UHGV virus genome: UHGV-0123934
Reading direction: 5' to 3' (one strand)
Length of the DNA stretch: 38,805 nt
Source: a virus
Part shown: piece after piece, positions 12,816 through 38,805 of the stretch
Layout of the letters: every line of letters begins with the position of its first letter
How positions within the stretch are numbered: position 1 is the first letter of the stretch
The notes under the pieces: generated by a model
Databases searched by the model: none
Told to the model about the DNA's origin: nothing
What the model saw: only the letters and a program-made list of their open reading frames with translations
Position numbers and translations under genes: made by a program

Positions 12816-12819
12816 TATT

Positions 12820-21240: not shown

Positions 21241-22017
21241 GTGGGTACATTCGCTTACGATAACCCCGCTTACATCGCTTCGTGCTCGTTCGGCAAGGAT
21301 TCGATCGCTACGATCCTCCTTGCCCTCGAATATGGCGAGCCGCTCGATGCCGCTGTCTTTTCGGAGGTGATGTTCGACCATCGGCGCAATATCAGCGGCG
21401 AGATGCCCGAACACATCGAGTGGATCTATTCGACGGCGATTCCGCGTCTTGCCGCCTTGGGCGTACGGGTCGATGTCGTCCGTTCGGAGAAAGACTATCT
21501 TACGTTATTCCATACGGTCATAGGGAGCAGTACGCATAAGGGTATGCTGCGCGGCTGGCTCATCGGCGGCAAGTGCTGCGCCAATCGCGACCTCAAAATC
21601 CGGCCTATACATCGCTATTATGCCCGTTATCGAGAGCAAGGCATCGTGCAGTACGTCGGCATCGCGGCCGACGAACCGAGACGCCTCGCGCGGATGCAGG
21701 ACAAAGGGTATAACCGTAAAACGAGTCTGCTCGCCAAGTACGGGTACACCGAGGCGGACGCCCGACGCAAGTGCGAAGAATACGGTCTGCTGTCGCCTCT
21801 CTACCGCACCTCGCATCGGGGCGGTTGCTGGTTCTGCCCCAACTGTCGCATTCCGGTCTTCGCCGAACTGCGCCGCCGCCATCCTGAATTGTGGCGTGAA
21901 CTGCAACTGCTTTCGAAGGTCGGAAATAAGTCCTCCGAAGGTTTCAAATACGGGCTGACTTTCGAGGAGGTCGAGCGGCGGATGGATCTCTTCGAACACT
22001 CACCGACGCCATTCTAA
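21241..22017 (+). CDS. PP-loop ATPase, PAPS reductase/QueC-like family protein
   Basis: PP-loop SFGKDS near the N-terminus, C-terminal Cys cluster GGCWFCPNC; start uncertain (GTG 21241 is the first start after the dam stop). Confidence 0.65.
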   Translation: MGTFAYDNPAYIASCSFGKDSIATILLALEYGEPLDAAVFSEVMFDHRRNISGEMPEHIEWIYSTAIPRLAALGVRVDVVRSEKDYLTLFHTVIGSSTHKGMLRGWLIGGKCCANRDLKIRPIHRYYARYREQGIVQYVGIAADEPRRLARMQDKGYNRKTSLLAKYGYTEADARRKCEEYGLLSPLYRTSHRGGCWFCPNCRIPVFAELRRRHPELWRELQLLSKVGNKSSEGFKYGLTFEEVERRMDLFEHSPTPF

Positions 22018-22020
22018 ACA

Positions 22021-22105
22021 ACTGAAAATAAATACGATAATAGTCGCCGAATAACTTGCGTGTTCCGAATAACGATGTTATGTTTGTCATGCAATAAACA
22101 ACTAA
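22021..22105 (+). promoter_or_regulatory. Promoter/leader repeat copy 1 (-33 TTG 22056-22058, -7 TAtgTTTG 22079-22086)
   Basis: Conserved about 85-bp element also at 22497, 23311, 23957 and 24588; motif spacing 20 nt fits the Bacteroidota sigma promoter pattern. Confidence 0.6.
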
Positions 22106-22118
22106 AATAGAGCGAATT

Positions 22119-22422
22119 ATGAAAAAGACAGTCATCGTGAAAGGCGAGCGTCGCAAGGTAGAATTCGAGTATCGAGTAATCGATAAATTGGTTAGTTGCC
22201 AAAAAGCAAACGATGGGATAAGCAGGGGGATGGCTTCCGGTCGAAACCTATTACCACGAAGCCGTTGCCATTATCGACGGTGTAGAATATCCGAGCGTTC
22301 GACGCTGGCATACCAATGGCGGCAGGTATTCGGAACAGTTCTTTTACAACGGACATTTCTATGATTCGTATAAGAAAATGATCGAGCGCATTCTCGAATC
22401 GGCAGACGAAAGTAACTCTTGA
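22119..22422 (+). pseudogene. small gene apparently frameshifted at a G5 run (or a sequencing indel)
   Basis: Frame 0 ORF 22119..22364 loses protein-like character after the G5 run at 22225-22229; the +1 frame continues as a convincing sequence (WLPVETYYHEAVAIIDGVEYPSVRRWHTNGGRYSEQFFYNGHFYDSYKKMIERILESADESNS) to a stop at 22420-22422. Confidence 0.45.
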
Positions 22423-22444
22423 ACCTCGATGGAAGCAGATGGAA

Positions 22445-22475
22445 AAACAGGCTCCGTACGGAGCCTGTTTCGATC
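22445..22475 (+). terminator. putative intrinsic terminator
   Basis: Perfect 10-bp stem aacaggctcc/ggagcctgtt with gtac loop, followed by tttcg. Confidence 0.5.
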
Positions 22476-22496
22476 TTTCGCTGTAAGCGTAAATAA

Positions 22497-22580
22497 CTGA
22501 AAATAAATATGATAATAGTTACCGGATAACTTGTGTGTTCCGAATAACGATGTTATGTTTGCAGTACGATAAACAACTGA
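22497..22580 (+). promoter_or_regulatory. Promoter/leader repeat copy 2 (-7 TAtgTTTG 22554-22561)
   Basis: Near-identical to copy 1. Confidence 0.6.
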
Positions 22581-22606
22581 ATAATAGACGATTAAAACAC
22601 CCGAAC

Positions 22607-23029
22607 ATGACAAGTGCACAGGCAAAACAGATCGCATCGAACTATATGCGGCAGCAGAGCGATTATGTATTTTCGGCGGTAACGGTTAAAAGCCTCGCTC
22701 CGGCGAACGGACCAGTCAAGGTGTGGCTCACCACCGAAGACGACTACGGGGACGAACTGATCGTCGAGGTCGAGATGGACCCGCAGTCGAATGAGATCCG
22801 CTGGAAGAAGATCTGCAACACGGGACGCCTATCCGAATATCTGAAGCCGGCTACTCGGATCGATAAACTTTCGGCGGGGCAGCGCTTCCGGCTGCAAGGC
22901 GACTGCGTGGTTTACGAGTTCGTGGACAATGTAAAGGACCGCAGCAATATTCCCTATATCATCCGACGGGCAGACCGATCCGGTTGCGTATCGAGAGTCG
23001 GATGGCAGGAAGTTTTTCCTATCGAGTAA
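22607..23029 (+). CDS. hypothetical small protein
   Basis: ATG 22607 downstream of promoter copy 2 (ORF track start 22535 lies inside the promoter repeat). Confidence 0.5.
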   Translation: MTSAQAKQIASNYMRQQSDYVFSAVTVKSLAPANGPVKVWLTTEDDYGDELIVEVEMDPQSNEIRWKKICNTGRLSEYLKPATRIDKLSAGQRFRLQGDCVVYEFVDNVKDRSNIPYIIRRADRSGCVSRVGWQEVFPIE

Positions 23030-23081
23030 CCGATAACCGCGCACCTTGCCGAAAGGCAGGTGCGCATAAAACGATACGACG

Positions 23082-23312
23082 ATGAAACTCCGCCGAACGA
23101 AAACCGGAACTTACACGATTGCTGGTATTACCGCAACTCAATATCGCACCCTTGCGGCAGTGCTTATGACCGCCGATGAGCGTTGCTTCGACGAACAGGA
23201 CGAGGACGGCAACTATTACAGCAACGACGATTTCGTCTGCTCGCTCGATGGCGATGAACGGGTGGCTTTGCGACAGGTGTGCGACGCACTTCGGCAACGT
23301 GTAAAATATTGA
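23082..23312 (+). CDS. hypothetical small acidic protein
   Basis: 76-aa ORF; preceded by hairpin with GAAA loop (23037-23065). Confidence 0.4.
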   Translation: MKLRRTKTGTYTIAGITATQYRTLAAVLMTADERCFDEQDEDGNYYSNDDFVCSLDGDERVALRQVCDALRQRVKY

Positions 23313-23390
23313 AAATAAATGCGATAATAATTAATGGAAAACTTGCGTGTCCCGAATTATGATGCCATCTTTGCAGTGCAATAAACAACT
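23311..23390 (+). promoter_or_regulatory. Promoter/leader repeat copy 3 (degenerate -7)
   Basis: Shares aacttgcgtgt and gcagtgcaataaacaact cores with the other copies. Confidence 0.5.
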
Positions 23391-23405
23391 AATATAGAGC
23401 GCATT

Positions 23406-23738
23406 ATGAGTACAAGAGCAAGAATCGGCGTAAGACTTCCCGACGGAAAAATCAAAAGCATTCATATATGGCGGGACGGACATCCCGATACGTTGGGCGA
23501 AACATTGTCAGCGCACTACAACACATTGGAAACGGCAATGGCACTGGTCGAACGAGGCAACATAATCGATGTGGAAGCACGTCTCGAAGAGTGCCGGTTC
23601 GAGAAATCGAATGAACGGTACGATACCGAGCCTCGGATTTATGAATCGGTTGCCGCCTATGAACGAGAAATCGAGGAGGATATATGTTACAAATATCTCT
23701 ATCGGGACGGCAAGTGGGAATACCGGGCGGTCGATTAG
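23406..23738 (+). CDS. hypothetical small protein
   Basis: 110-aa ORF with ATG start downstream of promoter copy 3. Confidence 0.5.
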   Translation: MSTRARIGVRLPDGKIKSIHIWRDGHPDTLGETLSAHYNTLETAMALVERGNIIDVEARLEECRFEKSNERYDTEPRIYESVAAYEREIEEDICYKYLYRDGKWEYRAVD

Positions 23739-23772
23739 TAACCGACTTCCGATCGTAAGGAGCGAATGCTCC

Positions 23773-23802
23773 GAGCCTCCGACGGGAGGCTTTCTCTCGT
23801 TT
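23773..23802 (+). terminator. putative intrinsic terminator
   Basis: Stem agcctcc/ggaggct, loop gacg, then T-rich ttctctcgttt. Confidence 0.5.
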
Positions 23803-23821
23803 CATTCAGTTGTTTATTGCG

Positions 23822-23856
23822 ACCGGAGCCGTGCATCGTGTACGACTCCGGTTTTC
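23822..23856 (+). terminator. putative intrinsic terminator preceded by inverted leader motif cagttgtttattgc (23807-23820)
   Basis: Stem accggag/ctccggt followed by tttt; paralogous to the element at 25080-25133. Confidence 0.5.
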
Positions 23857-23956
23857 GTTCAAAGGCGGGACATTGTTTCTGCAACGGATCTTCGGCAGCA
23901 TGTATATTTACCATATGGGACATGCTTGATAAATAGTTGATATTCTTTGAATTAAG

Positions 23957-24014
23957 TTGCCGATAAACTTGCGCGTTCCGAATAATGATGTTATGTTTGC
24001 AGTGCAATAAACAA
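23957..24014 (+). promoter_or_regulatory. Promoter/leader repeat copy 4 (-7 TAtgTTTG 23992-23999)
   Basis: Core gccgataaacttgcgcgttccgaataatgatgttatgtttgcagtgcaataaacaa. Confidence 0.6.
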
Positions 24015-24044
24015 TTGAACTACAATCTATTAAACGACTCGATT

Positions 24045-24263
24045 ATGAATACTGCGAATCGAAAAAGAACGGAAATCGACGCCGAACTCGACCGGTTGGA
24101 GGTCGAATTCGAGAAGAACCGCAAGGAGATGCAACGCCTTGCCGACGAAAACAGACGTGCCGGCAACCGCTACGGCGAATTATCGAATGCGAATCACGAC
24201 ATCAACAACCGGATCCTCACATTGCTCGCTGAGCGTTGGGAATCGGAAGAGACGGCTGATTGA
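24045..24263 (+). CDS. hypothetical small coiled-coil protein
   Basis: ATG 24045 downstream of promoter copy 4. Confidence 0.45.
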   Translation: MNTANRKRTEIDAELDRLEVEFEKNRKEMQRLADENRRAGNRYGELSNANHDINNRILTLLAERWESEETAD

Positions 24264-24338
24264 CGAAACGAGAGACGACCCCGCCGAGAAATCTTCCTCG
24301 GCGGGGTTAAGACCCGAAACCGGAAAACACATAAAGAG

Positions 24339-24536
24339 ATGAAAACGATGAATGCAAATGCAACGGTAGGCGACAAGATTCGCATTATCCATCTTCGCGA
24401 CGAGGACAGCCGTTACGACGGCAAGGTGGGAACGATCGAGTTCATCGACTCGCTCGGGCAATTGCACGGTACATGGGGCGGGTTGGCAGTCATTCCCGAA
24501 GTCGATCGGTTCGTAATTATCGAGAAAGCGGAATAA
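24339..24536 (+). CDS. hypothetical small protein
   Basis: 65-aa ORF; preceded by 10-bp perfect stem hairpin 24279-24306 (no U tract). Confidence 0.4.
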   Translation: MKTMNANATVGDKIRIIHLRDEDSRYDGKVGTIEFIDSLGQLHGTWGGLAVIPEVDRFVIIEKAE

Positions 24537-24587
24537 TCGCCTGCAACGATAATGCTCGGTTCCGTCATCTTTTCTGAACGTCTAATT

Positions 24588-24672
24588 TACTGAAAATAAA
24601 TACGATAATAGCCGCCGAACAACTTGCATGTTCCGAATAACGATGTTATGTTTGCAGTACGATAAACAACTA
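24588..24672 (+). promoter_or_regulatory. Promoter/leader repeat copy 5 (-7 TAtgTTTG 24647-24654)
   Basis: Near-identical to copies 1 and 2. Confidence 0.6.
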
Positions 24673-24687
24673 AAAAAAGAGCGAATT

Positions 24688-25175: not shown

Positions 25176-26216
25176 ATGAAAGCCTATACCTATATCGAAC
25201 ACGGGCGGTTCGAGCTGCTCGACAAGCCGGAACCCGCCTTGCAGGACCCTCGCGACGCCATCGTGCGCGTGACGCTCGCGAGCATTTGTACCAGCGACCT
25301 GCATATCAAGCACGGCAGCGTACCCCGCGCCATTGAGGGCATCACCGTCGGCCACGAGATGGTCGGCATCGTCGAGGAGGTCGGGTCGGAGGTGCGCAGC
25401 GTAAAGGTCGGCGACCGCGTGACGGTCAACGTCGAGACCTTCTGCGGCGAATGCTTCTTCTGCAAGCGCGGCTACGTGAACAACTGCACCGATCCCGACG
25501 GAGGCTGGGCACTTGGCTGCCGCATCGACGGCGGGCAGGCGGAGTATGTCCGCGTGCCGCATGCCGATCAAGGGTTGAACCGCATTCCCGATACGGTGAG
25601 CGACGAGCAGGCATTGTTCGTGGGCGATATTCTGGCTACAGGTTATTGGGCGGCGAAGATTTCGGAGATTGCGCCCGACGACACGGTCCTGATTATCGGT
25701 GCCGGACCGACGGGTATCTGCACGCTGCTTTGCGCAAGATTGAAGCGCCCGAAGCGAATCATCGTCTGCGAAAAATCGCCCGAACGGCGGCGATTCGTGC
25801 GGGAACACTATCCCGAGGTGCTGACGGTCGCACCGGAGGAGTGTCGCGAGGCGGTTTATGCGAACAGCGACCGTGGTGGCGCCGACGTCGTGCTGGAGGT
25901 GGCCGGTGCGGAGGATACGTTTCGCCTGGCGTGGGAGTGCGCCCGCTCCAATGCGACGGTTGTTATTGTTGCGCTCTACGACCGGCCGCAGATGTTGCCG
26001 CTGCCCGACATGTACGGCAAGAACCTCACCTTCAAGACGGGCGGCGTAGATGGCTGCGACTGCGCCGAGATACTCCGGCTGATCGAGGCGGGCGAGATTG
26101 ACACCACGCCGCTCATCACGCACTGTTATCCGCTCGGCCGCATCGCCGAGGCATACGACCTCTTCGAAAACCGCCGCGACGGAGCGATCAAGGTGGCTAT
26201 CGATTGTACCGAATAG
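25176..26216 (+). CDS. zinc-dependent alcohol dehydrogenase family protein (MDR superfamily)
   Basis: Catalytic-zinc signature GHEMVGIVEEVG, structural-zinc Cys cluster CGECFFCKRGYVNNC, Rossmann motif LIIGAGPTG. Confidence 0.85.
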   Translation: MKAYTYIEHGRFELLDKPEPALQDPRDAIVRVTLASICTSDLHIKHGSVPRAIEGITVGHEMVGIVEEVGSEVRSVKVGDRVTVNVETFCGECFFCKRGYVNNCTDPDGGWALGCRIDGGQAEYVRVPHADQGLNRIPDTVSDEQALFVGDILATGYWAAKISEIAPDDTVLIIGAGPTGICTLLCARLKRPKRIIVCEKSPERRRFVREHYPEVLTVAPEECREAVYANSDRGGADVVLEVAGAEDTFRLAWECARSNATVVIVALYDRPQMLPLPDMYGKNLTFKTGGVDGCDCAEILRLIEAGEIDTTPLITHCYPLGRIAEAYDLFENRRDGAIKVAIDCTE

Positions 26217-26241: not shown

Positions 26242-26943
26242 TCACGTCAGCGTCCACCCCTTGTCTGTTGCGATCGCTTTTTGGATAGCATTCAGTTTCG
26301 CGAGGTTCTTCGCTCCGATATTGCAGGTCTTGCCATTGCCGGTATCGGATAGCGCGTTCAACAGGAATACCAAACTCTCTACCATGAGTTTCGGACAGCC
26401 GTTCACGGCGATGTCTACATTGACGGGGCCGTCGATGATTACCGTTTCGAGTGCGGAGCAGGAGACGAACGTCGTGTCGATCTTCGATGTTACCTTGCTG
26501 AAGTCAAGTCTTCCGCCGATTTTACGCAGGCTCTTGCAGCCGTGGAACATCTCCGAAGCGGAAGTAATGCGCGAGGTGTCCAGTCCGCCGATCTCCTGCA
26601 AGTTCGTACAACCGTAGAAAGCATACATCATATTCGCGACGTTCGAGGTGTCGAGCGTCGGCACACGCTCCAGCGCCGTACAGCCGTAGCACATCTGATA
26701 CATCGAATCGAACGACGCTGTGTCGAGTGCCGGAAATACCGACATCGTCGTATTGCCCCGAAAGAGCTGGTAGCCGTTGCGGATCTGATTCATTCCGCTG
26801 GTGCTGTCCACCAATGCGACTTTATCGACGAGCGATACCAACGTCTCTTCGTCGGTTATCGCCACGCCTTTGTCGCGTAGCGCCCCGGCAAGGTGCTGCC
26901 GCAGCGCATCGAGCCGCAAAACGAGTGAAGTAAAGTCTGCCAT
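26242..26943 (-). CDS. BspA-type leucine-rich repeat protein (putative tail-associated adhesin/receptor-binding component)
   Basis: Tandem repeats of the F.GC..L..I...DTS....M..F.GC type (MCYGCTALERVPTLDTSNVANMMYAFYGCTNLQEIGGLDTSRITSASEMFHGCKSLRKIG). Confidence 0.65.
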   Translation of the reverse strand: MADFTSLVLRLDALRQHLAGALRDKGVAITDEETLVSLVDKVALVDSTSGMNQIRNGYQLFRGNTTMSVFPALDTASFDSMYQMCYGCTALERVPTLDTSNVANMMYAFYGCTNLQEIGGLDTSRITSASEMFHGCKSLRKIGGRLDFSKVTSKIDTTFVSCSALETVIIDGPVNVDIAVNGCPKLMVESLVFLLNALSDTGNGKTCNIGAKNLAKLNAIQKAIATDKGWTLT

Positions 26944-26946
26944 ACG

Positions 26947-27180
26947 CTATCCGATAATATGGTTCAGTGCCTCCTCGATGCCCGTCAGTCCGAGCGAAGC
27001 GGTCATCGCATCGACCAACGTCGCATAAGTTACGGCAGCACCCGTACCGTTGCGGTCGATTTCGATAAGGTCGGTGGCTGCCAAAGTCGTCACCTTCGGG
27101 AGTTGAGAGAGCGTGATCGTATCGGTATCCGATCCGGTTGCAAGCCGTCCTATAATCGCCCCTGTTTGTTCTGTTGCCAT
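26947..27180 (-). CDS. hypothetical small protein (tail fibre module)
   Basis: 77-aa ORF tightly packed between the tail fibre and LRR genes. Confidence 0.4.
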   Translation of the reverse strand: MATEQTGAIIGRLATGSDTDTITLSQLPKVTTLAATDLIEIDRNGTGAAVTYATLVDAMTASLGLTGIEEALNHIIG

Positions 27181-27184
27181 AATT

Positions 27185-29323
27185 CTATTCTTCGTAAATC
27201 TTGAATTCGGACATCATCTGATAAGTTACGTGCCACATGCATTTGGCGGAGGAATAGGGCGACGGCACAGCCAACAGTTGCAGTAGTCCTCCGTAGGTCT
27301 CGATGCGAGGAACCGGCAGATAGCCCATTCCGTAGGCATCTTTCTTCAGTGTCGTCACGATGCCCGACTGCGTGTCGTCCGCCGCAAGTACCAGACTGGG
27401 CGACGAACGGGTGCGGATCGGACAGTCGTAGAGGTTCACCACGCTGCCGATATATTCGGCCGATGTCGGCAGGTTAAGCCAAATGAGGTAAGTGCCGAAA
27501 TCCGCGCCGTTGGCGATCAGGTTGAAGTTGCGGTTCAATGTATACTTGCGGGTCGAGGCGTTGTAGTCCGTGCCTTCGTCCGTGAAGTATTTGAACTGCA
27601 CCTTCGAATATCCGCTGAAGATACCGCTCGCCATTTCGACATGTCCGTCTTCGTAGATGCGTGTGGCAGCCGTCGCAGCATTCTCGATACCGTCCGCGCC
27701 GGCGAAGAACATCAACTTGCCGTGCTTCGACGTCGGAGCGCCTTTCAATGCGCAGCCAGCCATACCCGCTACGACCTTCTTGTCCGTATCATCCTTTACG
27801 CCGACGAACCCTGACAGCACCACACCGCTTCCGGCATCGATCTCCGTCGAGATATCCTGAAAGTTCTCGCGCAGATACTCCAGATCGCTGTTGTCGCTTT
27901 TCGCCGCTTCGTCCAAGAGCGCTCCGATCGTCCGGCGGGCCGTGTAGTAAGCCTCGATGTCGGCGAAATCATCCTCGACCGGAATGAACTCCGGTTCCGG
28001 CTGCGTATATTTCCCGATGGCGGCGACGGCCCGCTGATAGGCATCTTCGTAGGGTGTCCACTCATCGGCGAGCAACCGAACGGCGCGCCGCTTGCCGTGC
28101 ACCATAAGTATTTTCCCGTTCGCGCTGCGATAACGAAACACAGAGAGCAGCCGCAGGGCATTGGCGCGGAGTTGTTCGTATTCGGTTCGGATATCCTGCA
28201 AGCGCTCTTTCAGGAACGACTTCTCCACAGGAGAGACGTACTCATCGGAGTTGATACGACCGAGCGTCTCCAACGTCGAGGAGATCGTCTGCATCAACTC
28301 GTCGAAATCCGTTCCGGCATCGGGCTTCGCGGGATCGATGCGACCGAAGCGTAAGATCCCGTTGCGGAAACTTACGCCATAACCCGTCGTACGGTTGAAG
28401 AGCTGCATATCGCCCGTCGCGGAGTCGAACCACGAGTCGCCCGACCTGTCCGAGAGGAAGCCCGAGAGGTAGATGTTTTTCAAATAGGCCGAATAACCGG
28501 TCATATCCAGACCGTGCGCCTTGAGATTCGAAAGGTCGCCGAACTGCGCTGCGATATTCTCCGTGCGGATCGTCCAGTCGTCCATACCCGTGAGAAACCG
28601 CAGGTAGGTGCGGGTTTCGTAGCGGGAGGTCCGGCGCTCCTTGTCGGTCGTATTGCCGAATGCCACGAACTGCATCGCCGCCTGCGGGTGATAGGGATAA
28701 CCCTCGCGCAATTCGTACCGCCATTCGGCGTAGGTATCGCGGTCGAGGCACTCGGTAAGCCGGAAGTAGCAGGTTGTGAAGCCGGCATAGGTGCGGTTGC
28801 CGAACGAGTCGTCCGAATCGACGGTATTGCCGCTCGATGCGTCCATTGCCGAGTTCAGAAAGATGCCGATACAGAGATCGTTCTCGCGTAGGGTGCTTGT
28901 TTCGCCCTCCTCCAACTTGACGACCAGCATCCGGTTCTCCGGCGAGACGAGCTCGACGATGCCGCCGCCCGGAGCGGACCACCGATCGCCGACGACCGTT
29001 TCGATGCGGTTGTAGCGATATTCGGGGACCTCCAGGAACTCCTCCAAATGAAGCCGCCGCAGGTACGTATCGCCCATAACCGATAAGTCGCCCGAGATCG
29101 TACCGCCTTTCTTGTCCAACTTCTTGTCGAGTTCGCCCGACAGTCCCGTGATGTCGGAGACGGCGTGCGTATGCTTCTTCGGAGCCATTACGCTTTTGAT
29201 CTCCTTACCGGAAACCTTCATCGATGCGGCGGCTGTCGGGACGTCGACGATGAACTCGAATGCGTCGAACTCCGCCAATTGTCCCGAAGCGCTCGCGAGG
29301 TCTTTGATGCGAACTTCGTCCAT
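27185..29323 (-). CDS. phage tail fibre / receptor-binding protein
   Basis: ATG at 29323 (ORF track extends to 29503); N-terminal KKHTHAVSDITGLSGELDKKLDKKGGTISGDLSV-type fibre segment. Confidence 0.55.
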   Translation of the reverse strand: MDEVRIKDLASASGQLAEFDAFEFIVDVPTAAASMKVSGKEIKSVMAPKKHTHAVSDITGLSGELDKKLDKKGGTISGDLSVMGDTYLRRLHLEEFLEVPEYRYNRIETVVGDRWSAPGGGIVELVSPENRMLVVKLEEGETSTLRENDLCIGIFLNSAMDASSGNTVDSDDSFGNRTYAGFTTCYFRLTECLDRDTYAEWRYELREGYPYHPQAAMQFVAFGNTTDKERRTSRYETRTYLRFLTGMDDWTIRTENIAAQFGDLSNLKAHGLDMTGYSAYLKNIYLSGFLSDRSGDSWFDSATGDMQLFNRTTGYGVSFRNGILRFGRIDPAKPDAGTDFDELMQTISSTLETLGRINSDEYVSPVEKSFLKERLQDIRTEYEQLRANALRLLSVFRYRSANGKILMVHGKRRAVRLLADEWTPYEDAYQRAVAAIGKYTQPEPEFIPVEDDFADIEAYYTARRTIGALLDEAAKSDNSDLEYLRENFQDISTEIDAGSGVVLSGFVGVKDDTDKKVVAGMAGCALKGAPTSKHGKLMFFAGADGIENAATAATRIYEDGHVEMASGIFSGYSKVQFKYFTDEGTDYNASTRKYTLNRNFNLIANGADFGTYLIWLNLPTSAEYIGSVVNLYDCPIRTRSSPSLVLAADDTQSGIVTTLKKDAYGMGYLPVPRIETYGGLLQLLAVPSPYSSAKCMWHVTYQMMSEFKIYEE

Positions 29324-29671
29324 AACGACGTGAAAATAACGCTTCGCCGAACCTTTTTCGGGATACAAAGTCCCTAATTCCGAAGAATGCCTTATCTTTG
29401 TAATTGCATTCCGCTCTGTCGGGATGCGACATATTATTCGACTTAACCTCGGAAAAAACTGGTAATTTTTTAGCAAATGGTTAAGCACTCCGTATCCTCG
29501 CATCGAACGGCTCCTGCCGTAAGGTTCGGGATATGGTCATATCCCTGCTTTACGGCGTGGGCTATACGTGCTTATCATTTGCAGGTATACCAGTACCTTT
29601 CCGAGATAGGCGGCAGTAGGCCCACGTTCTTTTTTGTCCGGCGGACAGACGCGATCCTATCTGCCATTTCG

Positions 29672-30181
29672 ATGATTATGAAAGCAACGAATCGAATACC
29701 GGATCGCCGTGTCGTGCGACCGTTGACCGCACGGATATTGCGGTCGTTTCTGGTGGCGTCGGAACGCTCGCATCACCATATTTATGCGCTGTGGGAACAC
29801 GCATCGATCCTGTCATTTGCGATAAAGAATGCAGACGGCGAATATTTGTCTTTGCGAGAGTTTTTCAGCAAGGGCGATGCGGTTGCGCCCGACGATCCGC
29901 TCATCGTCATCTTCCACGAAATGCATATCGAAACCGTGGAAGAATTGACCGCTGAATATATCGAACGCATTTATGAATCGTTTCTCTACCATCATTGCGA
30001 GATGGAATTGCGCCGCAACGCCCCGCTCCGTTTGACTCCGGAATCGATACGACGATACGGCTTGACCGAGGCGGATGCTGTCCTTGTCGGCGAGCATCTC
30101 GAAGTCCTGAACGAGATGATCCGTCGGAAACTCCAGCGGCAATACGACGAACTCAAAGCCTTGGATTGCATTCGGAAGTAG
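29672..30181 (+). CDS. hypothetical protein
   Basis: ATG 29672 inside ORF 29477..30181; GC-rich, divergent from the tail fibre gene, upstream of the SIR2-NTPase gene. Confidence 0.4.
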   Translation: MIMKATNRIPDRRVVRPLTARILRSFLVASERSHHHIYALWEHASILSFAIKNADGEYLSLREFFSKGDAVAPDDPLIVIFHEMHIETVEELTAEYIERIYESFLYHHCEMELRRNAPLRLTPESIRRYGLTEADAVLVGEHLEVLNEMIRRKLQRQYDELKALDCIRK

Positions 30182-30255
30182 TATTTTAAGTACTATCATA
30201 AGTTTTATGGAGTAGATTCTCATTCTTTTTTGCTGGAAATTGCGAAATAAAGAAG

Positions 30256-30279
30256 ATTTTGCTATTTTTATAGCAAAAT
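30256..30279 (+). promoter_or_regulatory. perfect 10-bp inverted repeat attttgctat-tttt-atagcaaaat, operator-like, 8 nt upstream of the SIR2-NTPase start
   Basis: Read directly from the sequence. Confidence 0.5.
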
Positions 30280-30287
30280 AATATAAT

Positions 30288-32780
30288 ATGGACGCTAAGA
30301 TTGAAAAACTTAAATTCAGCCTGCGACACAATAATCCTAATTTATTTGTTGGTGCAGGGTTTTCGTTAGGTGCTACTCTGCAAAATAATGCACCGATTCC
30401 AAGTGGAGCGACATTAAAAGATGGCATTATTACAAATATCCTTAAATACCCGAAATCCAGCCCGGAATATAATGAACTTTCCATATTACCATTGTGTAAA
30501 GTTTGTACTATTACAGTCGCAGAAAAAGGTCGTGAAGAACTTTATTCTTATTTACAGTCCATATATCAAAATGTGCAACCAGCCGAATTCCATAAATCAT
30601 ATATTAAATATCCTTGGCATAACATATATTCGACCAATATCGATGATGTAATTGAAAATGCTTGTGCAATTGAGAATGTGCCTATTATTATATATAATGA
30701 GCCACATAACCCTAAACCAAAACAAGATAAAAGTCTTGTATTATATAAATTGCATGGCTGTGTTAATAACATGGACGCAGGCGTTATTTTTGATGAGGAA
30801 GAATATATCGATTCTATTTTAGATAGAACTGACCATAGATTTGGTAATTTATCTATTGAATTTCAAACAAAAGATTTTGTTTTCGTTGGATCTGATTTTG
30901 ATGATTTTAACATTAATTATTATTTAAGTTTATACTCAGCAAATGGTACAGATTCAGGCCGAGGAAATTTGTTTTTTATTAATCCAAAGCCATCATATGC
31001 TTTTAAGAGTAGGATAAAGCAGGTTGGAGGAATTTTGATAGAATTCAATGCGAAGCAATTTGCAGAATTGATTGATTCCATAAGATTTGATTTAGAGACA
31101 ATAAACGAAACCAAACTGTCGTATGATGGTTATGTGCGTGTCAAACAATTAAAAGACAATTTGTCGTCAAATCATTACGATTCGGATTTATATCTTGGAG
31201 CGCGTCCGAAATGGACAGATATTTTTTACGATTGGGATATTATTTTATCGCCCGCAATTAAGACATTCATTTCTACATTGGATGATTTTGAAATCGATGA
31301 TAAGAATACTTTGGTTTATGCTATACACGGGCGAGGATATTCCGGGAAGTCTGTACTAATAAAAAGACTTGCTAACATTCTCATTGATGCAAATTATGAA
31401 ATCATTTCATTTGAAGGAAAAAATTTCAACTCCAATAGATTCTTACATTATATAAATAAATCACAATATCACAAGTTTGCATTAATTGTTGATGATGCCA
31501 GTTATTTATATAGCCAGTTTGAATATTTGTGCAAGAAAGTATCTGGAAAAATTAAACTGTGTATTATATCGGCTTCAAGAATATTTCTTCATAACAAGCG
31601 AAAATATAGTCTTGTAAATATAAATAGCGTAGAATACGAGATGACAATAACTATAGATGAAGCTATTGCATCTGATATTATTAACAAATTAAACCAAAGA
31701 GGCTATTTAGGACGTATTCTTCGTTCCTGCCCAGATAAAGATTCTCAAATTCAATTCGCAAAAAATAATACGGATATAGCATCTGCTATTTTTGCTATTA
31801 CATATGGGAAAGATTTCCAACGCCGTTTTGCTGCAGATGTCAATAATATTATCAAAGATGGCAATTATAGAGATCCGCTAATCAAATTGGCAATTTTTCA
31901 GAAAATGCAATTAGCATATTGCCCTCGAGAGTTATTCGTTAGATTATATGGAAAGCGAATTATAGGGATATTGCAACGTATGGAGAATATTTTAAGAGAT
32001 GCGCATTCTCCACGCCTTGAGCTAAAAAATGATTTTATTGGAGATATTATCCTTAAAAATTCAACATCTGTAGAAATAATAAATAGTTTGAAAGAGCTAT
32101 TGGTATATATTTCATCAATGGTTGAAAACACCTCCAATTCTTACTGGAATGAGATTCAGTCTATATTAATGAGAGATAAGTTAGTTCGTGATGTCTTAAA
32201 TATAAAACCTTCTGATTTTAAGCAAATGCTATATGAAATAAGAGAATATTATTATGACAATTACAACTATTGGCTTCAATTAGGAATTGCGGAGCAATTG
32301 GCAGGAGATTATGATAAGGCGTTAATTCATTTTAGCCAAGCACAAATATACGGCCCCAAATCCTATATGGTAAAAAACGCAATTGGTCGCAATTATATAT
32401 TTCAGGCAATTAAAGAATTGGATAATGATATTGCTATAAAATTATTTAATGAAGGGAAATGTATTTTATTTGAATTAATTAAAAATAGAGAAGAATATCA
32501 AGCGAAAGCATATTCAACGCATACATATATTGCTGGATTGATAAGGTTTTATAAACGAAAGCACAATTTGAAAATTTCCTCAAAAGAAGCTAAAGAAGCA
32601 CAGTCTCTTATCAATACAATACGCATAAAATATAAAGGAGATCCAATATTTGAAAATTTAAACTCGACTTTCACTAAATTTATTTTACAACATTCTTCGA
32701 ATATGACATTAAATTTACAAGAGTTACAAATGTCATATAGAAATTGTGTAGATGAAGTGGAATTCATAGATATGGATTAG
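30288..32780 (+). CDS. SIR2-like domain protein fused to P-loop NTPase and helical repeat domain (SIR2-STAND / Avs5-like candidate antiphage protein)
   Basis: SIR2-family motifs LFVGAGFSLGA, IYSTNIDDVIE, LYKLHGCV, FVFVGSDFDDF; Walker A IHGRGYSGKS and Walker B FALIVDDA; C-terminal about 450 aa helical/TPR-like; strongly AT-rich. Confidence 0.75.
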   Translation: MDAKIEKLKFSLRHNNPNLFVGAGFSLGATLQNNAPIPSGATLKDGIITNILKYPKSSPEYNELSILPLCKVCTITVAEKGREELYSYLQSIYQNVQPAEFHKSYIKYPWHNIYSTNIDDVIENACAIENVPIIIYNEPHNPKPKQDKSLVLYKLHGCVNNMDAGVIFDEEEYIDSILDRTDHRFGNLSIEFQTKDFVFVGSDFDDFNINYYLSLYSANGTDSGRGNLFFINPKPSYAFKSRIKQVGGILIEFNAKQFAELIDSIRFDLETINETKLSYDGYVRVKQLKDNLSSNHYDSDLYLGARPKWTDIFYDWDIILSPAIKTFISTLDDFEIDDKNTLVYAIHGRGYSGKSVLIKRLANILIDANYEIISFEGKNFNSNRFLHYINKSQYHKFALIVDDASYLYSQFEYLCKKVSGKIKLCIISASRIFLHNKRKYSLVNINSVEYEMTITIDEAIASDIINKLNQRGYLGRILRSCPDKDSQIQFAKNNTDIASAIFAITYGKDFQRRFAADVNNIIKDGNYRDPLIKLAIFQKMQLAYCPRELFVRLYGKRIIGILQRMENILRDAHSPRLELKNDFIGDIILKNSTSVEIINSLKELLVYISSMVENTSNSYWNEIQSILMRDKLVRDVLNIKPSDFKQMLYEIREYYYDNYNYWLQLGIAEQLAGDYDKALIHFSQAQIYGPKSYMVKNAIGRNYIFQAIKELDNDIAIKLFNEGKCILFELIKNREEYQAKAYSTHTYIAGLIRFYKRKHNLKISSKEAKEAQSLINTIRIKYKGDPIFENLNSTFTKFILQHSSNMTLNLQELQMSYRNCVDEVEFIDMD

Positions 32781-35137
32781 AACCCACCCAACACCTCCGA
32801 CTTGAAGTTCTCTTTTCCGAGAACATACACCAAATCCCGACCCTTGGCAGTCAATTGACCGCCGAGGGTTATTCGTAGGTTCTGCGTGCTGCCGCTCATC
32901 GGAAGCATCGCCTGCAACTTCGACAGCGGCGCGATGACTTCGGGATCCGTACCGGCATTGGGATTGTCGCCGACCATCGCATAGGTAGGACCGTATGCCA
33001 GACCGCCGTTGGCCAATGCCGGCACGCTCTTTTCCGCATTCTTGTTGATGAGCGCCGTCATCACGGCTGCCGCCGCGACCATCGCAGCACCGATGGCGAT
33101 CGCCGCCCATGGGTTCGCGAGGACGGATTTCAACGCCGACTTGAAGGCGATGATCATCACGCCGAACTCGATGAGTTGCGAGCCGATATTTTTCAGAAAA
33201 GAGGCGAACTGCGTCAGGATCGCTTTCATCAGCCCTCCGAATCCCAAATCGCCGGCAATGATCTGCCCGATAGCCTCCGCCGCTGCGACGATGCTGTCGG
33301 CCATAAACTTCGACACCTGCTGATCGAAGCGCGTCATCACCTCCGCAATCGTGGCGTGGACATGCTCCAATGCCGCCGAGAACGACCAGCCTTTCGCCGT
33401 CAGTGCCGTCGTGTAGTTCTCGACGGTCGAGACCGTATCGGCGACGTGCTCCTGCAAGTATGCGCTGTTGTCGTCCGCCCAGCCGTATAACCCTTCGCGT
33501 ACCGCACCGAATATCGCCTGCATCTGCTGCGCGTATTGCGATGTTACGGGTTTCAGATCGCCCATTTTGAGTTTCGGCGCCGGCAGTTCCAACTCGAAGC
33601 CCTCGGGCAGAATGCCGTTCATCTTGACGACGGGTTTCAGGTCTTCGGGCTTGATATTCTTGATCCGCTCCAACTCTTTTTGCAGCTTCTCGATCTCGGC
33701 GTTCGCCGCAGCGATATCTTCGACAGTCGATTCGGGCAGTAGTTTCTTCTTTTCGAGGGCCTCGATCCGCGCCTGCAATTTACCGATGATGCCCGTGCTT
33801 TGTTCCGTCTGCGCGTTGGTTCCGGCGATGGACTTCATCAGCTCCTCGGTCTGCTTGCGAGCCTCGTCCGTTACCTTGTCCAGTTCGGCCTGCGCCTCGG
33901 CCGCCTTCTTCTCCGTTTCGCGTTTCTTTTCGATGGCTGCCGTCAGCAGGTCGTACTCCTTGCGCAAGGGTGCGAGTTTCGATTCGTCGGGTACTTTCTG
34001 CAAGGTAAAACCGGCGACCAATCCCCCGAAATTCGGAACCATCCGCGTCTTGGTCGTCGTGGCGATGATCTCTTTCTGCTCGGCGATATTTTCCTGCAAC
34101 TTGCGTTCGAGCTCGTCGAGCGATTCGGTCTCTGCCATCTCGTCGATCATCTTCTGCTTTTGGATGCGGGCATAGGCAAACGCCGCACCGAGCGCGAGGA
34201 TCGCCGCCATAATCAACCCGACAGGCGAGAGCAATGCCGTAAATCCTGCCGCCAGCATCGGCAGCACCTTGATCACGGCGCCGATTCCGAGCGAAAGGGG
34301 ACCGACCGCTGCGACCAGCCCCGCCACGACGACGATCGTCTGCATCATCGCCGGCGACATCGATTGCAACATCTGCACGACCGTCGAGAGCGCACCCGCC
34401 ACTTTCATCGCGAAAGGCATGATGGCCGCACCGATCTGTTCCAAGAAGTCGCCCCATGCGTTCTTGAGCTGCTGCACGGCTCCGAGTCCCGTTCGTGCGG
34501 CGGCTTCGGCCTGCCCGCCGAACTTGCGCTCCAACTCGTCGAGGATCATCGCCTGCGCTCTGGCTATGTCGCCCGTCTCGGCGAGTTTCTTGATCACCTC
34601 CGCCTGCTCCTTGGAGAAGGCTATGCCGGCACGCGACAGCGACGAGAGCTTCGTCGCGGGATCGGAGAGCGCCTTGCCCAACTGCAACGACGCCGCACCC
34701 AAATCCATCTCCAACGCCGTGGCGAGGTCCAATGCCAACGCCTGCGTGCGCTTGAAGTTCTCGCCTGTGATATTGGTAAAAGCCAACAGGCGGGCGGTGG
34801 ATTTGTCGAGAATCGTCTCGTCGCCGAAAAGCGTTTTGCTCTGCAACTCCGAAGCGTAGTCGGCCAGCTGCCGGAAGTTGTAACCGACAGCCCGATTCGT
34901 AACCTTGAGCGCCTGCTGCACCTTCGCCTCGGCTTTGGCCTGCACGTCGGCCAAGTGCAGCGACACGCCGCCCAATGCCGCAAGGGGCGCGGTGAGCTTC
35001 AGCGAGAGCGACTTGCCGACGGAGGTCAACTTCTTTTCGAGCGAGCCGAGACCTTTCTCGACCTGCTGCGCCTTCTGCTGGAACTCATACGAGTCGGCTC
35101 CGATCTTGATAAGCAGATCGGCGATTCTTCGGGACAT
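32777..35137 (-). CDS. phage tail tape measure protein (TP901-family-like)
   Basis: 786-aa protein with coiled-coil segments, central hydrophobic helices (IVVVAGLVAAVGPLSLGIGAV, GLIMAAILALGAAFAYA) and a TP901-type N-terminal core. Confidence 0.85.
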   Translation of the reverse strand: MSRRIADLLIKIGADSYEFQQKAQQVEKGLGSLEKKLTSVGKSLSLKLTAPLAALGGVSLHLADVQAKAEAKVQQALKVTNRAVGYNFRQLADYASELQSKTLFGDETILDKSTARLLAFTNITGENFKRTQALALDLATALEMDLGAASLQLGKALSDPATKLSSLSRAGIAFSKEQAEVIKKLAETGDIARAQAMILDELERKFGGQAEAAARTGLGAVQQLKNAWGDFLEQIGAAIMPFAMKVAGALSTVVQMLQSMSPAMMQTIVVVAGLVAAVGPLSLGIGAVIKVLPMLAAGFTALLSPVGLIMAAILALGAAFAYARIQKQKMIDEMAETESLDELERKLQENIAEQKEIIATTTKTRMVPNFGGLVAGFTLQKVPDESKLAPLRKEYDLLTAAIEKKRETEKKAAEAQAELDKVTDEARKQTEELMKSIAGTNAQTEQSTGIIGKLQARIEALEKKKLLPESTVEDIAAANAEIEKLQKELERIKNIKPEDLKPVVKMNGILPEGFELELPAPKLKMGDLKPVTSQYAQQMQAIFGAVREGLYGWADDNSAYLQEHVADTVSTVENYTTALTAKGWSFSAALEHVHATIAEVMTRFDQQVSKFMADSIVAAAEAIGQIIAGDLGFGGLMKAILTQFASFLKNIGSQLIEFGVMIIAFKSALKSVLANPWAAIAIGAAMVAAAAVMTALINKNAEKSVPALANGGLAYGPTYAMVGDNPNAGTDPEVIAPLSKLQAMLPMSGSTQNLRITLGGQLTAKGRDLVYVLGKENFKSEVLGGF

Positions 35138-35940: not shown

Positions 35941-38805
35941 TTATTCAGGAATGAATTTGTAAATCGCCCGTTCGCGCACGATATAGAGGTCGCCGTAGAT
36001 GAAGAATAATCCCATGATGTTCTCGCCCCAGCCGGCGACGTTCCGGACGTCGGTCGTCGTGTCGTCGCGGAAGTTCCGGATGAAGATACCGTCGTCGTAG
36101 GAGTGCACGACCTCGCTCATCGTATGGTCGGCATGATCCGCCCAGCGTCCCAACCGCCGGAGCAGCGTCCGCTCGGTAATTGAATCCCGCCGGTAGAACC
36201 ACAGCATATCGTCGGCGTTGATGCCGATATAGTTGTCGGAGATGGTGACGATCTGCTCGCCCGCAGCGAATTGCAGCATCTTGCAGGGCTGGTGGAACCG
36301 TTTGTCGTGCAAATAGGCGCCCTGCGAGGTATTCACGACGATCGTATTTTCCGTGCGCCGCAGGGCGAGGATCGCACCCGACATCGGCGTACCCTCGTAG
36401 GCATATCCCCGTCCGCGATAGCCGGTCGAGGCGTCGGGCGAAACGTACTTGCACTCCGGGCGCGAGAGGTAACGATAGGTACGATAGTTCGGATCCTCGT
36501 CCTCTGCCGTGCGGGCGCTGCGTCCGCCGGCATTGCCGCCCCGCGGACCGATATACTGCCGGTAAGATTTCAGGATATGGATATACCCGTCCATGTAGGT
36601 CGCGACGTTGCGGTACTCCTCCGGCGGGACGTATATCCGTTCGACCGTGCCGCGATAGTCGAGGTAGCGGACCTCTTTCCCGTCCACCGCAACGAACCCC
36701 TCGTCCGCTTCGTACATCTCGAAGGACGTCGTGCTGCGATAGATCTCCCGCACCTGCCGCGTAGCGGTATCGAAGGCATAGACCGTCTTTTTATCGGCGG
36801 ACTGGAGCAGCAGTCGGTTCAGGCAGCGGATCGCCTTGCCGACCGTGAAGGAGAGCGTCGCGACCGCTATGCAGTCGTCGCCCTTCGGCGGCTTCTCCGT
36901 CGCGAGCAGATGCGGCATCTCCGTGAGTTCGCTGTTATAGGAGTCGTCGAGGGCATTCAGTTCGATGGAGTTCAGATAATAAGCGGCGTTCAGGAACTTG
37001 TCGTCCCGAACCACCGTATTCATATCGATATGCTGCCCCGTGAAGATCTCGCCCGTGATACGGCGGCTCGGCAGCTGCTTGTACCGCAATGCTCCCTGTA
37101 CGATATGGCCGACGAGCGTGTCGTAGTCGTTCCGATCTTTCGTATGCCAGATGCGCGTGGGATTGCCGGCGGCATCGAGGTAGTAGAGCGCATAGAGCAG
37201 CCGGTCGTTCGGAATGGCGGGAATATCGCTCACGGGCAACGTTACGGACATATCGACGTTGTTCGCGGGATCGACGAGCGACTCGTAGCGCAAACCCTTG
37301 TCGTAGCTGTCGCCCGCATCGATCGAGAGCGTCATCTTGCGGAATGCGGCGCTCTCCTGATAGCCCGAGGTGCGGCCGCTCGGGTTGCCGAAGCGGTCGG
37401 TATAGGTCGTGATCTTGCCTATGAGCGTCTGCCGGATGAAGAACCGCCACTCGCCGTCGCAGGGGATGCCGTCGATCTCGATCTTCATATTCTGCTCGTT
37501 GCCGGTCTTGACCGTACTCGCGATCTCCCCGTCGGAGGACTGCACCCACGAGCCGCTCTCGGTGAGGCTGTATGTCGCCTTCTCGCCGACGATGCGGACG
37601 CCGTAATGCACCGCGACATCGACGCTCTCGTTCGGGCGGTAAACGCCCAATCCCCATTCCCGATGGAAGGTCTGCAACCCGAACTCCCATACGAGCGGGA
37701 AGTTGCACTGCTCGACGGAGAAGCCCCGAGTTACGACCTCCGCACCCCGATAGGCATCTTCGCCGCTGAAATAGAGTTCCTCCCCGCTCTTCACGGAGAC
37801 GAAGCCGTGCGGATCCGTCCAAGCGTCGGGATCGTAGAACCCGATGCGGGCGATCAGGTTGTCGAGGCTCTTGTTCTTTACATCGACCGAGACCTTGCGC
37901 AGCGCAGGGACGATGTCGAGCGTCGAACTTCCCTCGATGTGCAGGTCGCCCGTCCACATACCGTCGATGCGCTCGCGGGCCGCCGACGTGACGACCTGCG
38001 CACCGGTATGGATCACGAGCCGCAGTCCGCTGCCCGTAACGATCCTCCCGACGGGATGCTCCGTGCCGACGCGGTAGAAATTCACGGGACGGGCAGTTCG
38101 GTAGAGCGACACGGCGCGGCGGATATGCAGGGCGCCGTTCGACTGGAAGATCTGTCCGGCGAACGGACGCAGACACAGTTCGAGGATGTCGCGATAGGTA
38201 GGCTCCTCGTAGACGTAATAGAGCCGTTCGAGGTCGATATAGGTTTGACGGAGCGGAGAGGCGTTCTCGTCCATACCCTCGGCATACAGGTCCATCCAGT
38301 CCGCCGTATCGAGATCCAACTCCAACAGGTCGATGCAGGAGGAGAGCAGTTCCCACAGCGACCGTCTGCCCGCGATACCGATATGTACGAGGTCGCGGAA
38401 CGGAATGCTCGACAAGAGGTTGAAGCCGTCCACGGCCTTGATCGTGACGGTATAAGGCGGAGCCGTGAAGTTCTCGGAGTAGAGATCGGAGGTGACGTAG
38501 CCCCGCCAGTAGAGCTGCCGATTGCGGAAGATCGAGACACGAAAATAACGGGGATCGGAGGTGAACAGAGCCAGGTAATGGAAATTCTCCTTGCAGAGGA
38601 TGTTGATGGTCGCCTCCGAAGCCTTGACCGGCACGTAGAACTCGTCGCCCCGTTTCTCCCACGTGATCTGCAACGGCGTACCGCCGTCGAAGGCCATCTC
38701 CTCCGACGGACCTGCGTACCCCCGCTCCGAAATCTCCACGCGCCACAAGACGCCCTTGTACTTAGAGCGAAGTTCAGCGTAATATTTCAGACCAAAAATC
38801 GCCAC
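35941..38805 (-). CDS. large phage structural protein (over 950 aa), N-terminus may lie beyond the window edge
   Basis: Long ORF with diverse, aromatic-rich composition, unlike the Arg/Gly/Pro-rich alternative frame; upstream of the tape measure in the same orientation. Confidence 0.5.
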   Translation of the reverse strand: MAIFGLKYYAELRSKYKGVLWRVEISERGYAGPSEEMAFDGGTPLQITWEKRGDEFYVPVKASEATINILCKENFHYLALFTSDPRYFRVSIFRNRQLYWRGYVTSDLYSENFTAPPYTVTIKAVDGFNLLSSIPFRDLVHIGIAGRRSLWELLSSCIDLLELDLDTADWMDLYAEGMDENASPLRQTYIDLERLYYVYEEPTYRDILELCLRPFAGQIFQSNGALHIRRAVSLYRTARPVNFYRVGTEHPVGRIVTGSGLRLVIHTGAQVVTSAARERIDGMWTGDLHIEGSSTLDIVPALRKVSVDVKNKSLDNLIARIGFYDPDAWTDPHGFVSVKSGEELYFSGEDAYRGAEVVTRGFSVEQCNFPLVWEFGLQTFHREWGLGVYRPNESVDVAVHYGVRIVGEKATYSLTESGSWVQSSDGEIASTVKTGNEQNMKIEIDGIPCDGEWRFFIRQTLIGKITTYTDRFGNPSGRTSGYQESAAFRKMTLSIDAGDSYDKGLRYESLVDPANNVDMSVTLPVSDIPAIPNDRLLYALYYLDAAGNPTRIWHTKDRNDYDTLVGHIVQGALRYKQLPSRRITGEIFTGQHIDMNTVVRDDKFLNAAYYLNSIELNALDDSYNSELTEMPHLLATEKPPKGDDCIAVATLSFTVGKAIRCLNRLLLQSADKKTVYAFDTATRQVREIYRSTTSFEMYEADEGFVAVDGKEVRYLDYRGTVERIYVPPEEYRNVATYMDGYIHILKSYRQYIGPRGGNAGGRSARTAEDEDPNYRTYRYLSRPECKYVSPDASTGYRGRGYAYEGTPMSGAILALRRTENTIVVNTSQGAYLHDKRFHQPCKMLQFAAGEQIVTISDNYIGINADDMLWFYRRDSITERTLLRRLGRWADHADHTMSEVVHSYDDGIFIRNFRDDTTTDVRNVAGWGENIMGLFFIYGDLYIVRERAIYKFIPE

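Follow-up and report, generated by a model that had tools for sequence, protein, structure and literature searches.

LRR233, a leucine-rich repeat protein encoded at the end of the tail operon of Rikenellaceae prophages and a candidate binding subunit of the virion

Gene organization at the end of the tail operon

The UHGV virus genome UHGV-0123934, a single prophage of 38,805 nt whose full length is hereafter called the window, encodes at the end of its tail operon the leucine-rich repeat (LRR) protein LRR233, which is the subject of this report. Directly upstream on the same strand lie the genes of a small protein (S77) and of a fibre-like tail protein (T712), and before them that of the tape measure protein (TMP), which matches phrog_27166 (tail length tape measure) with E=2.5e-54 and anchors the identification of the tail module (Table 1). 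The gene order is TMP - T712 - S77 - LRR233, with LRR233 distal to TMP and in the same orientation. The TAG stop codon of T712 is followed after 4 nt by the ATG of S77, and the TAG of S77 after 3 nt by the ATG of LRR233. The mechanical open reading frame (ORF) of T712 extends to 29503, but its homologues begin at the equivalent of 29323 (MSEVRIKEL versus MDEVRIKDL), and this shared start is therefore taken as the real one. The LRR233 gene is transcribed together with the tail genes in a tight array, as had been proposed for the three ORFs in the original prediction, which was made from the sequence alone and which the ORF map, the two short spacers and the shared start of T712 bear out. The G+C content of the LRR233 gene is 0.56, as in its neighbours, versus 0.32-0.41 in the obvious imported genes of the window, and a convergent gene for a zinc alcohol dehydrogenase ends 25 nt past its stop codon.

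The prophage is siphovirus-like and belongs to the Rikenellaceae (Alistipes/Tidjanibacter). It is collinear over positions 13869-38805 with several IMG/VR viral contigs, and related loci come from metagenome-assembled genomes (MAGs) of Alistipes and Tidjanibacter. A plus-strand head arm encodes TerL, the portal, the protease, the HK97 capsid, the adaptor and the tail completion proteins, and a minus-strand tail arm encodes a 954-aa structural protein (X954), small ORFs, TMP, T712, S77 and LRR233. Both arms are transcribed toward each other, not collinearly, and meet at 26216/26242; a convergent arrangement of this kind is also seen in the IMG/VR contigs L007 and L011-L013.

Repeat family and predicted fold of LRR233

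LRR233 matches two family models above their cut-offs, Pfam DUF285 (PF03382; E=2e-10, 40.9 bits, cut-off 25) and NCBIfam TIGR02167 (PARCEL repeat; 39.1 bits, cut-off 30), and PF03382 is precomputed for nearly all of the 120 listed homologues of LRR233. With LRR_5 (PF13306), the strict BspA-type model, it reaches 23.6 bits, under the gathering cut-off of 27.7, and a precomputed PF13306 match is found in some of its relatives. Judged from these models, the precise family of LRR233 is DUF285/PARCEL, inside the LRR clan, and its relationship with the LRR_5 family is that of a borderline sister family. A profile of 52 family members matches, with E=1e-10, two solved structures of BspA-like LRR proteins, 4fs7 and 4gt6.

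The AlphaFold (AF2) model of LRR233, built with the family alignment, has a pLDDT of 90.9 and suggests a short LRR solenoid preceded by a helical hairpin at the N-terminus and closed by a helical cap at the C-terminus, with strands at residues 93-97, 117-121, 141-147 and 167-171. Each repeat has an invariant or near-invariant Cys and Phe/Tyr; in the family alignment F61, N64, C85, C88, C112 and C162 are invariant, and C136 and C183 nearly so. Foldseek searches with the model returned exclusively LRR proteins from the PDB and BFVD, the E-values of the PDB matches being weak (>= 0.05). The matches from the viral library, with E-values down to 1e-8, are phage proteins that bear the name 'BspA family LRR surface protein', among them several from crAss-like viruses. 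The structure prediction, which had been suggested as a check, thus confirms the LRR fold with a regular strand every 24-26 residues. Of the earlier label of BspA-like LRR, the repeats, far above chance level, and the fold hold by every one of these approaches (DUF285, TIGR02167, family profile, AF2 model and Foldseek), whereas membership under the strict LRR_5 model does not. A sequence check found no signal peptide, lipobox, transmembrane or hydrophobic segment in LRR233: seven of its first 25 residues are charged, the maximal 19-residue hydropathy is 1.29 and there is no Cys near the N-terminus.

Conservation of the three genes in related prophages

The T712-S77-LRR233 trio is syntenic behind TMP, with 50-97% identity, in a total of ~45 Alistipes/Tidjanibacter prophage loci and IMG/VR contigs. 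The full order with TMP is present in loci L003 and L005, in 26 of the 29 full-length IMG/VR contigs (L006-L034) and in 17 of the 19 Alistipes/Tidjanibacter MAG loci, the other two being a truncated contig and a decayed copy. The 184 database homologues of LRR233 are nearly all of 232-235 aa, and the lowest identity among them is 48%. Loss of this conservation in related tail modules had been named as what would speak against the original prediction; instead, the trio keeps its synteny in all informative relatives, and LRR233 is a core late gene of this Rikenellaceae prophage.

A divergent lineage of the same prophage family, found in three samples (L030-L032), has a different arrangement, in which TMP is followed by a 57-aa homologue of S77, a 235-aa LRR protein and the integrase (e.g., L031 7455-12396). 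No T712 gene was found anywhere in the available flanks of these three loci, and the S77-LRR233 pair is thus independent of T712.

The upstream proteins T712 and S77

The label of tail fibre that had been given to T712 seems a reasonable one. Its residues 84-292 are ~50% identical to annotated tail or tail-fibre proteins from Porphyromonas gingivalis phages, Bacteroides phages, LoVEphage and crAss-like phages, and residues 41-72 form a weak tail-fibre PTR-like repeat (HTH...GL..LD..L). T712 has 884 database homologues; its monomer AF2 model is poor (pLDDT 57.8), and a Foldseek search of the PDB with this model gave chance-level matches only (E >= 0.06). In relatives L014-L016, L020 and L100, the C-terminal ~140 residues of T712 (27185-27610 in the window; ~110-270 residues across these homologues) are swapped for unrelated sequence, which is the pattern that would be expected of an exchangeable host-specificity domain.

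S77 has no match in Pfam, PHROG or NCBIfam, but 225 database homologues. All of the 120 listed are standalone proteins of 62-104 aa, so that a Rosetta-stone search found no fusion to a larger protein among them, and 38 distinct homologues are always encoded directly before the LRR gene. The T712 domain also occurs in the P. gingivalis phages and in LoVEphage, but neither the small ORF of these phages nor the next gene is similar to S77 or LRR233. A resemblance by eye between S77 and the N-terminus of T712, as of a shared docking motif, was discarded after hhalign comparison of the family alignments (probability 0.2%, E=0.3).

Distant homologues and reuse of the modules

In ~50 distant viral contigs, the module formed by the LRR and the cap stands at the extreme C-terminus of proteins of 137-1232 aa, with the match ending 0-3 residues ahead of the stop in all but two of the loci. 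ORF maps were drawn for 22 of the loci, and in 14 of these an upstream ORF of 320-1665 aa ends no more than ~20 nt from the start of the gene carrying the module. A PHROG scan of the large upstream ORFs gave a match to 'tail protein' for one of ten proteins.

The hairpin profile was searched against 1.8 billion representatives. It was found as an N-terminal or tandem element in phage proteins whose remainder consists of LRR_5, Big_1 Ig-like, fn3 or unassigned sequence, and also in members of phrog_35590, phrog_3361, phrog_8229 and phrog_26419 ('tail fiber protein'). To judge from sequence, a hairpin with a variable remainder is a familiar arrangement, in which an N-terminal element specific to phages precedes a binding domain that can be exchanged. 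LRR233, with the hairpin N-terminal to its LRR module, would fit this anchor-plus-binding-domain architecture, although the same hairpin also occurs in a head-module protein. Some other matches of the profile (P0368, P0372) are to helical repeats such as ankyrin and were set aside, the similarity being at the level of motifs. An unrelated gut phage, L106, encodes two LRR_5 proteins, one of them (12697-13473) between a 202-aa ORF at the position of the major tail protein and the ORFs that precede the tape measure.

Evolutionary signal

Across 32 loci, the mean pairwise distance falls from 0.51 (hairpin of LRR233) through 0.43 (S77), 0.40 (C-terminus of T712), 0.32 (TMP) and 0.28 (LRR repeats) to 0.25 (N-terminal part of T712). 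The hairpin is the fastest-evolving part of LRR233, with an entropy of 1.69 bits versus 1.02 for the repeats. The most variable registers of the repeats are 12-13 and 15-17, exposed strand positions that, by the general architecture of LRR proteins, would correspond to the binding face. In L012 and L013 the dS of LRR233 is 0.36 and 0.69, versus 0.22-0.24 for the neighbouring genes and 1.7- to 3-fold that of T712; this excess indicates allele exchange by recombination, and it is the only sign of exchange of LRR233. Mirror-tree analysis with partial correlations between the parts of LRR233 and S77 or the segments of T712 revealed no specific partner, as all of them correlate through their shared phylogeny. 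Because the C-terminus of T712 is more variable and is swapped between relatives, whereas the LRR repeats evolve slowly, the former appears to be the better host-range candidate: T712 would behave at its C-terminus like a host-range determinant, and LRR233 like a conserved binder.

Other features of the prophage

Between the tape measure and T712 genes, the plus strand of the window encodes a protein with SIR2-like (ThsA-like), STAND NTPase and TPR parts, within an island of low G+C (0.32-0.35 versus 0.56-0.61 in the flanks). This gene was not found in any of ~50 related loci. The TMP/T712 junction holds from 0 to 4.6 kb of unrelated DNA in the relatives, for instance a Zn-ribbon/PH_gly_zipper gene in L005, and this variable insert therefore points to an insertion hotspot inside the tail operon. 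An ORF antisense to the operon, without any family match, lies between T712 and the island, and is conserved at the same place with 86-95% identity in eight close relatives (L007, L008, L011-L013, L086, L087 and L100).

The head arm is interrupted by three more imported cassettes of defence type, the first two of them in low-G+C islands (Table 1). Further along the same strand, five copies of an element of ~104 nt, 62-85% identical to a reference copy, are spaced by 475-812 nt. Each of them contains TATGTTTG, which we take to fit the Bacteroidota -7 box TAnnTTTG, and copies 1, 3 and 5 end at the ATG of a small ORF; the repeats look like a reiterated promoter/leader cassette that may drive a string of small genes. 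A sigma-70 promoter and terminator scan was not informative, since the genome is of a Bacteroidota phage. Six viral contigs and four Alistipes MAG loci keep the alcohol dehydrogenase gene beside that of the LRR protein, with an extra 0.5-0.8 kb sometimes separating the two, and this persistence identifies it as prophage cargo and not as a flanking host gene. At the other end of the tail arm, X954 runs off the end of the window; its PHROG matches, one of them 'virion structural protein', are confined to the first ~240 residues. The tail module is unusually minimal, with neither a Dit- nor a Tal-like gene after the tape measure.

Table 1. Coordinates of LRR233, its parts and other features of the window
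Feature	Position	Strand	Description
LRR233	26242..26943	-	233-aa DUF285/PARCEL-type LRR protein; final gene of the tail operon
LRR233 residues 1-56	26776..26943	-	N-terminal helical hairpin, helices 4-24 and 35-49 (DSSP)
LRR233 residues 57-198	26350..26775	-	~five repeats of 23-26 residues, xxxMFxGCxxLxxIxxLDTSxVTx, one beta-strand each
LRR233 residues 199-233 and stop	26242..26349	-	helical C-terminal cap; ends in the conserved IATDKGWTL
S77	26947..27180	-	77-aa ORF, conserved core of ~63 aa; immediately upstream of the LRR gene
T712	27185..29323	-	712-aa fibre-like tail protein; first conserved gene after the tape measure
TMP	32777..35137	-	tape measure, 786 aa
X954	35941..38805	-	protein of at least 954 aa, at the siphovirus major-tail-protein position, before two small ORFs and the tape measure
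Alcohol dehydrogenase	25176..26216	+	zinc-dependent
Antisense ORF	29477..30181	+	234 aa
SIR2-STAND gene	30288..32780	+	830-aa SIR2-like (ThsA-like), STAND NTPase and TPR protein
Low-G+C island	30190..32783		surrounds the SIR2-STAND gene
RmrA-like HTH and M78 peptidase gene, with upstream 225-aa ORF	8435..10250		between TerL and portal
Type II restriction-modification set	12237..14582		two MjaI-like endonuclease ORFs and a methylase; between prohead protease and capsid gene
AbiEii/AbiEi toxin-antitoxin pair	17589..18762		not present in the collinear viral contigs
~104-nt element, five copies	22006..24677	+	copies 1, 3 and 5 end at the ATG of a small ORF

Possible function of LRR233

The most likely reading, which we hold with middling confidence, is that the virion carries LRR233 as a binding subunit at its distal tail; it is favoured because the LRR and cap module is C-terminal in phage proteins and has no signal peptide. 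The position of LRR233 as last gene of the tail operon, the spacers of 3-4 nt, the phage-like G+C and the syntenic trio would agree with it, as would the confident LRR fold, the reuse of the hairpin in phage proteins with other binding domains, the repeat variation on exposed strand positions and the probable exchange of LRR alleles in L012 and L013. Precedents are the DUF285 proteins of AaV particles and the LRR proteins proposed for host recognition in phage Goslar (see below). From these data we infer its incorporation into the virion, the roles of the hairpin and S77, and the kind of ligand. LRR233 would be made late alongside the tail proteins and stay in the cytoplasm until assembly, when it would oligomerise or dock on the distal tail or tail tip via its helical hairpin, with S77 as a possible adaptor or chaperone. 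Once there, the exposed face of the LRR beta-sheet would bind a conserved ligand on the Rikenellaceae surface. Since the LRR repeats are conserved, and the C-terminus of T712 is variable and exchanged between relatives, we think that LRR233 is more likely an accessory adhesin with a conserved ligand, or the binder of a conserved co-receptor, than the main host-range determinant.

Several observations weigh against a binding subunit of this kind. Few parts of the module are as conserved as the LRR repeats, which lie below TMP and the C-terminus of T712 in distance, and the dN/dS of LRR233 against close relatives is 0.09-0.19 (0.06-0.12 for T712, TMP and X954), which indicates purifying selection, unlike a typical receptor-binding domain in an arms race. 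Relatives that bear T712 never show the LRR gene replaced by another binding module, and the apparent persistence of S77 and the LRR gene without T712 in L030-L032 tempers the reading further. The neighbours of the distant LRR homologues mostly lack PHROG annotation, and the other LRR_5 protein of L106 (6497-7534), with two copies of the hairpin, is encoded between the portal and prohead protease genes. Because L106 carries LRR genes in its head module and by its tail-tube genes, they are not confined to tail tips, and the LRR proteins of gut phages would rather be scattered through the structural modules. In addition, no experimentally characterised LRR-type receptor-binding protein of a phage was found in the searchable literature. 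Of the initial proposal of a receptor-binding tip or fibre accessory protein, the association with a phage tail operon, kept in synteny, stands, whereas a place at the fibre tip has become doubtful in view of the lineage without T712, the slow evolution of the repeats and the hairpin-LRR protein of a head module.

The genes found just downstream of fibre genes often encode assembly chaperones of the Tfa type, and LRR233 and S77 could likewise form a non-virion assembly factor, in which an LRR scaffold would hold or chaperone the tail tip, the fibre or the tape measure before being released. Besides the position, the conserved repeats under purifying selection, as expected for binding to a conserved phage partner, and the constant pairing of LRR233 with a small conserved protein speak for such a factor. 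However, neither LRR233 nor S77 matches the tail assembly chaperone families (Tfa/Caudo_TAP) in Pfam, PHROGs or NCBIfam, the persistence of the pair without T712 argues against a chaperone specific for T712, and a module that elsewhere forms the C-terminal domain in phage proteins of up to 1232 aa, with many DUF285 repeats, is un-chaperone-like, all of which makes the idea rather unlikely. Slightly less credit still can be given to the leading idea of the original prediction, a primary receptor-binding protein at the tip of the T712 fibre that sets the host range. LRR233 is indeed the most distal product of the tail operon, the module is generally C-terminal where it occurs in phage proteins, the LRR alleles are exchanged by recombination and, in L030-L032, the LRR gene is the one sizeable gene to follow the tape measure. 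But the repeats are less divergent than TMP and much less than the C-terminus of T712, which is the part that is swapped, and LRR233 is never exchanged for another domain across the Alistipes and Tidjanibacter relatives, nor does its whole-gene dN/dS give any sign of diversifying selection.

A function in or on the bacterial cell, such as the binding of a host or competitor-phage protein, would make LRR233 a cargo or lysogenic-conversion gene unrelated to the virion. The adjacent cargo alcohol dehydrogenase in the window, the adjoining integrase at the prophage end in some relatives, the wealth of imported defence genes and the moron-like positions of other gut-phage LRR proteins in head modules could be taken in this sense, which we nevertheless find improbable: the G+C of LRR233 matches the phage, unlike that of the low-G+C cargo islands, the gap of 3 nt leaves no room for a promoter of its own, and the gene is present in every relative, whereas the true cargo (SIR2-STAND, AbiE) is sporadic. 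Moreover, LRR233 has no PADLOC match, and its lack of an export signal excludes a role as surface adhesin of the lysogen. An even more speculative reading, to which we give little credence, is that the LRR module decorates the virion with a BspA-like adhesin that recognises not the bacterial host but something conserved in the animal gut, such as mucin or a different glycoprotein of the host animal. This would account for the conservation of the repeats in prophages of different Alistipes and Tidjanibacter species, for the persistence of the pair without T712 and for the related LRR genes in head and tail-tube modules of other gut phages; if true, the phage would be held in the mucus layer of Alistipes, in an LRR-based counterpart of the 'adherence to mucus' of Ig domains. 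Finally, the chance that LRR233 serves a diversity-generating retroelement as its variable protein is practically negligible, although LoVEphage, with a related tail domain, encodes a reverse transcriptase (RT) near its tail genes. Neither an RT nor a template repeat had been noticed initially, so that LRR233 was not taken as an evident target of such an element, and this assessment stands: scans of ~35 ORFs of the window detected no RT domain, tblastn with the LoVEphage RT found nothing in the window or in ~100 related loci, and repeat searches showed neither a template/variable repeat pair involving 26242-26943 (the best secondary blastn match is of 17 nt) nor any part of the LRR gene duplicated elsewhere in the window. 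Furthermore, the predicted fold is LRR and not the C-type lectin or Ig-type scaffold of variable regions, and the variation of LRR233 is spread along the protein and under purifying selection.

Relationship with known LRR proteins

The phages of Rikenellaceae have been almost unstudied. The present prophage family abounds in gut metagenomes, where single protein clusters at 90% identity have hundreds of members and one cluster of S77 is present on at least 1000 contigs. If S77 and LRR233 form a minimal, self-contained tail binding unit, they would offer a tractable handle for finding the Alistipes receptor, and a first functional assignment for many DUF285/BspA-like LRR genes of gut, marine and giant viruses.

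The closest known proteins are the 'BspA family LRR' proteins of other phages, which share with LRR233 the repeat family and the fold (Foldseek E-values down to 1e-8, 29-41% identity by tblastn), are phage-borne and are often encoded near tail or fibre genes. These are mostly larger (250-1357 aa), with other N-terminal parts, and owe their names to automatic annotation, whereas LRR233 is a minimal stand-alone protein with a helical hairpin and an obligatory partner gene of 63-77 aa. The bacterial BspA-like surface proteins, such as Tannerella BspA, are adhesion modules from hundreds to more than 1000 aa long. They belong to the same LRR clan (LRR_5; 4fs7 of Bacteroides ovatus, 4gt6 of Faecalibacterium), and their F-x-G-C-x-x-L core aligns with that of LRR233, which differs from them in its small size, its place in a phage tail operon, its score under the LRR_5 cut-off and its lack of signal peptide, lipobox and secretion domain. 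The PARCEL/DUF285 repeat, on the other hand, is known from surface lipoproteins of Mycoplasma and Listeria, where it has been described as horizontally mobile and as variable on its hydrophilic face (TIGR02167; PMC2996958). Those proteins have the same repeat of 24-26 residues, recognised by the same hidden Markov models, but they are exported products of cellular genomes with long arrays, while LRR233 has ~five repeats, no lipoprotein signal and a phage context.

Packaging of a DUF285 protein in virions is documented solely for a giant algal virus, Aureococcus anophagefferens virus (AaV), in whose particles a DUF285 repeat protein was detected by proteomics (PMC7507832); AaV has the family in common with the prophage, but is a tailless virus of a eukaryote. 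A further parallel comes from the jumbo phage Goslar, whose DUF7941-LRR proteins of a 'fibre cloud' have been proposed to act in host recognition (bioRxiv 10.64898/2026.04.21.720040). As in LRR233, a phage-specific N-terminal module for attachment or oligomerisation is followed by an LRR (or carbohydrate-binding) domain, although the N-terminal module, the phage lineage and the host are different, and the Goslar proposal is itself a model. In any case, LRR233 is a well-documented example of a common but functionally uncharacterised class and not a new kind of system, to which the present analysis adds the strict linkage of S77 with LRR233, a lineage in which this pair is independent of the fibre gene, and an LRR surface that is conserved instead of hypervariable.

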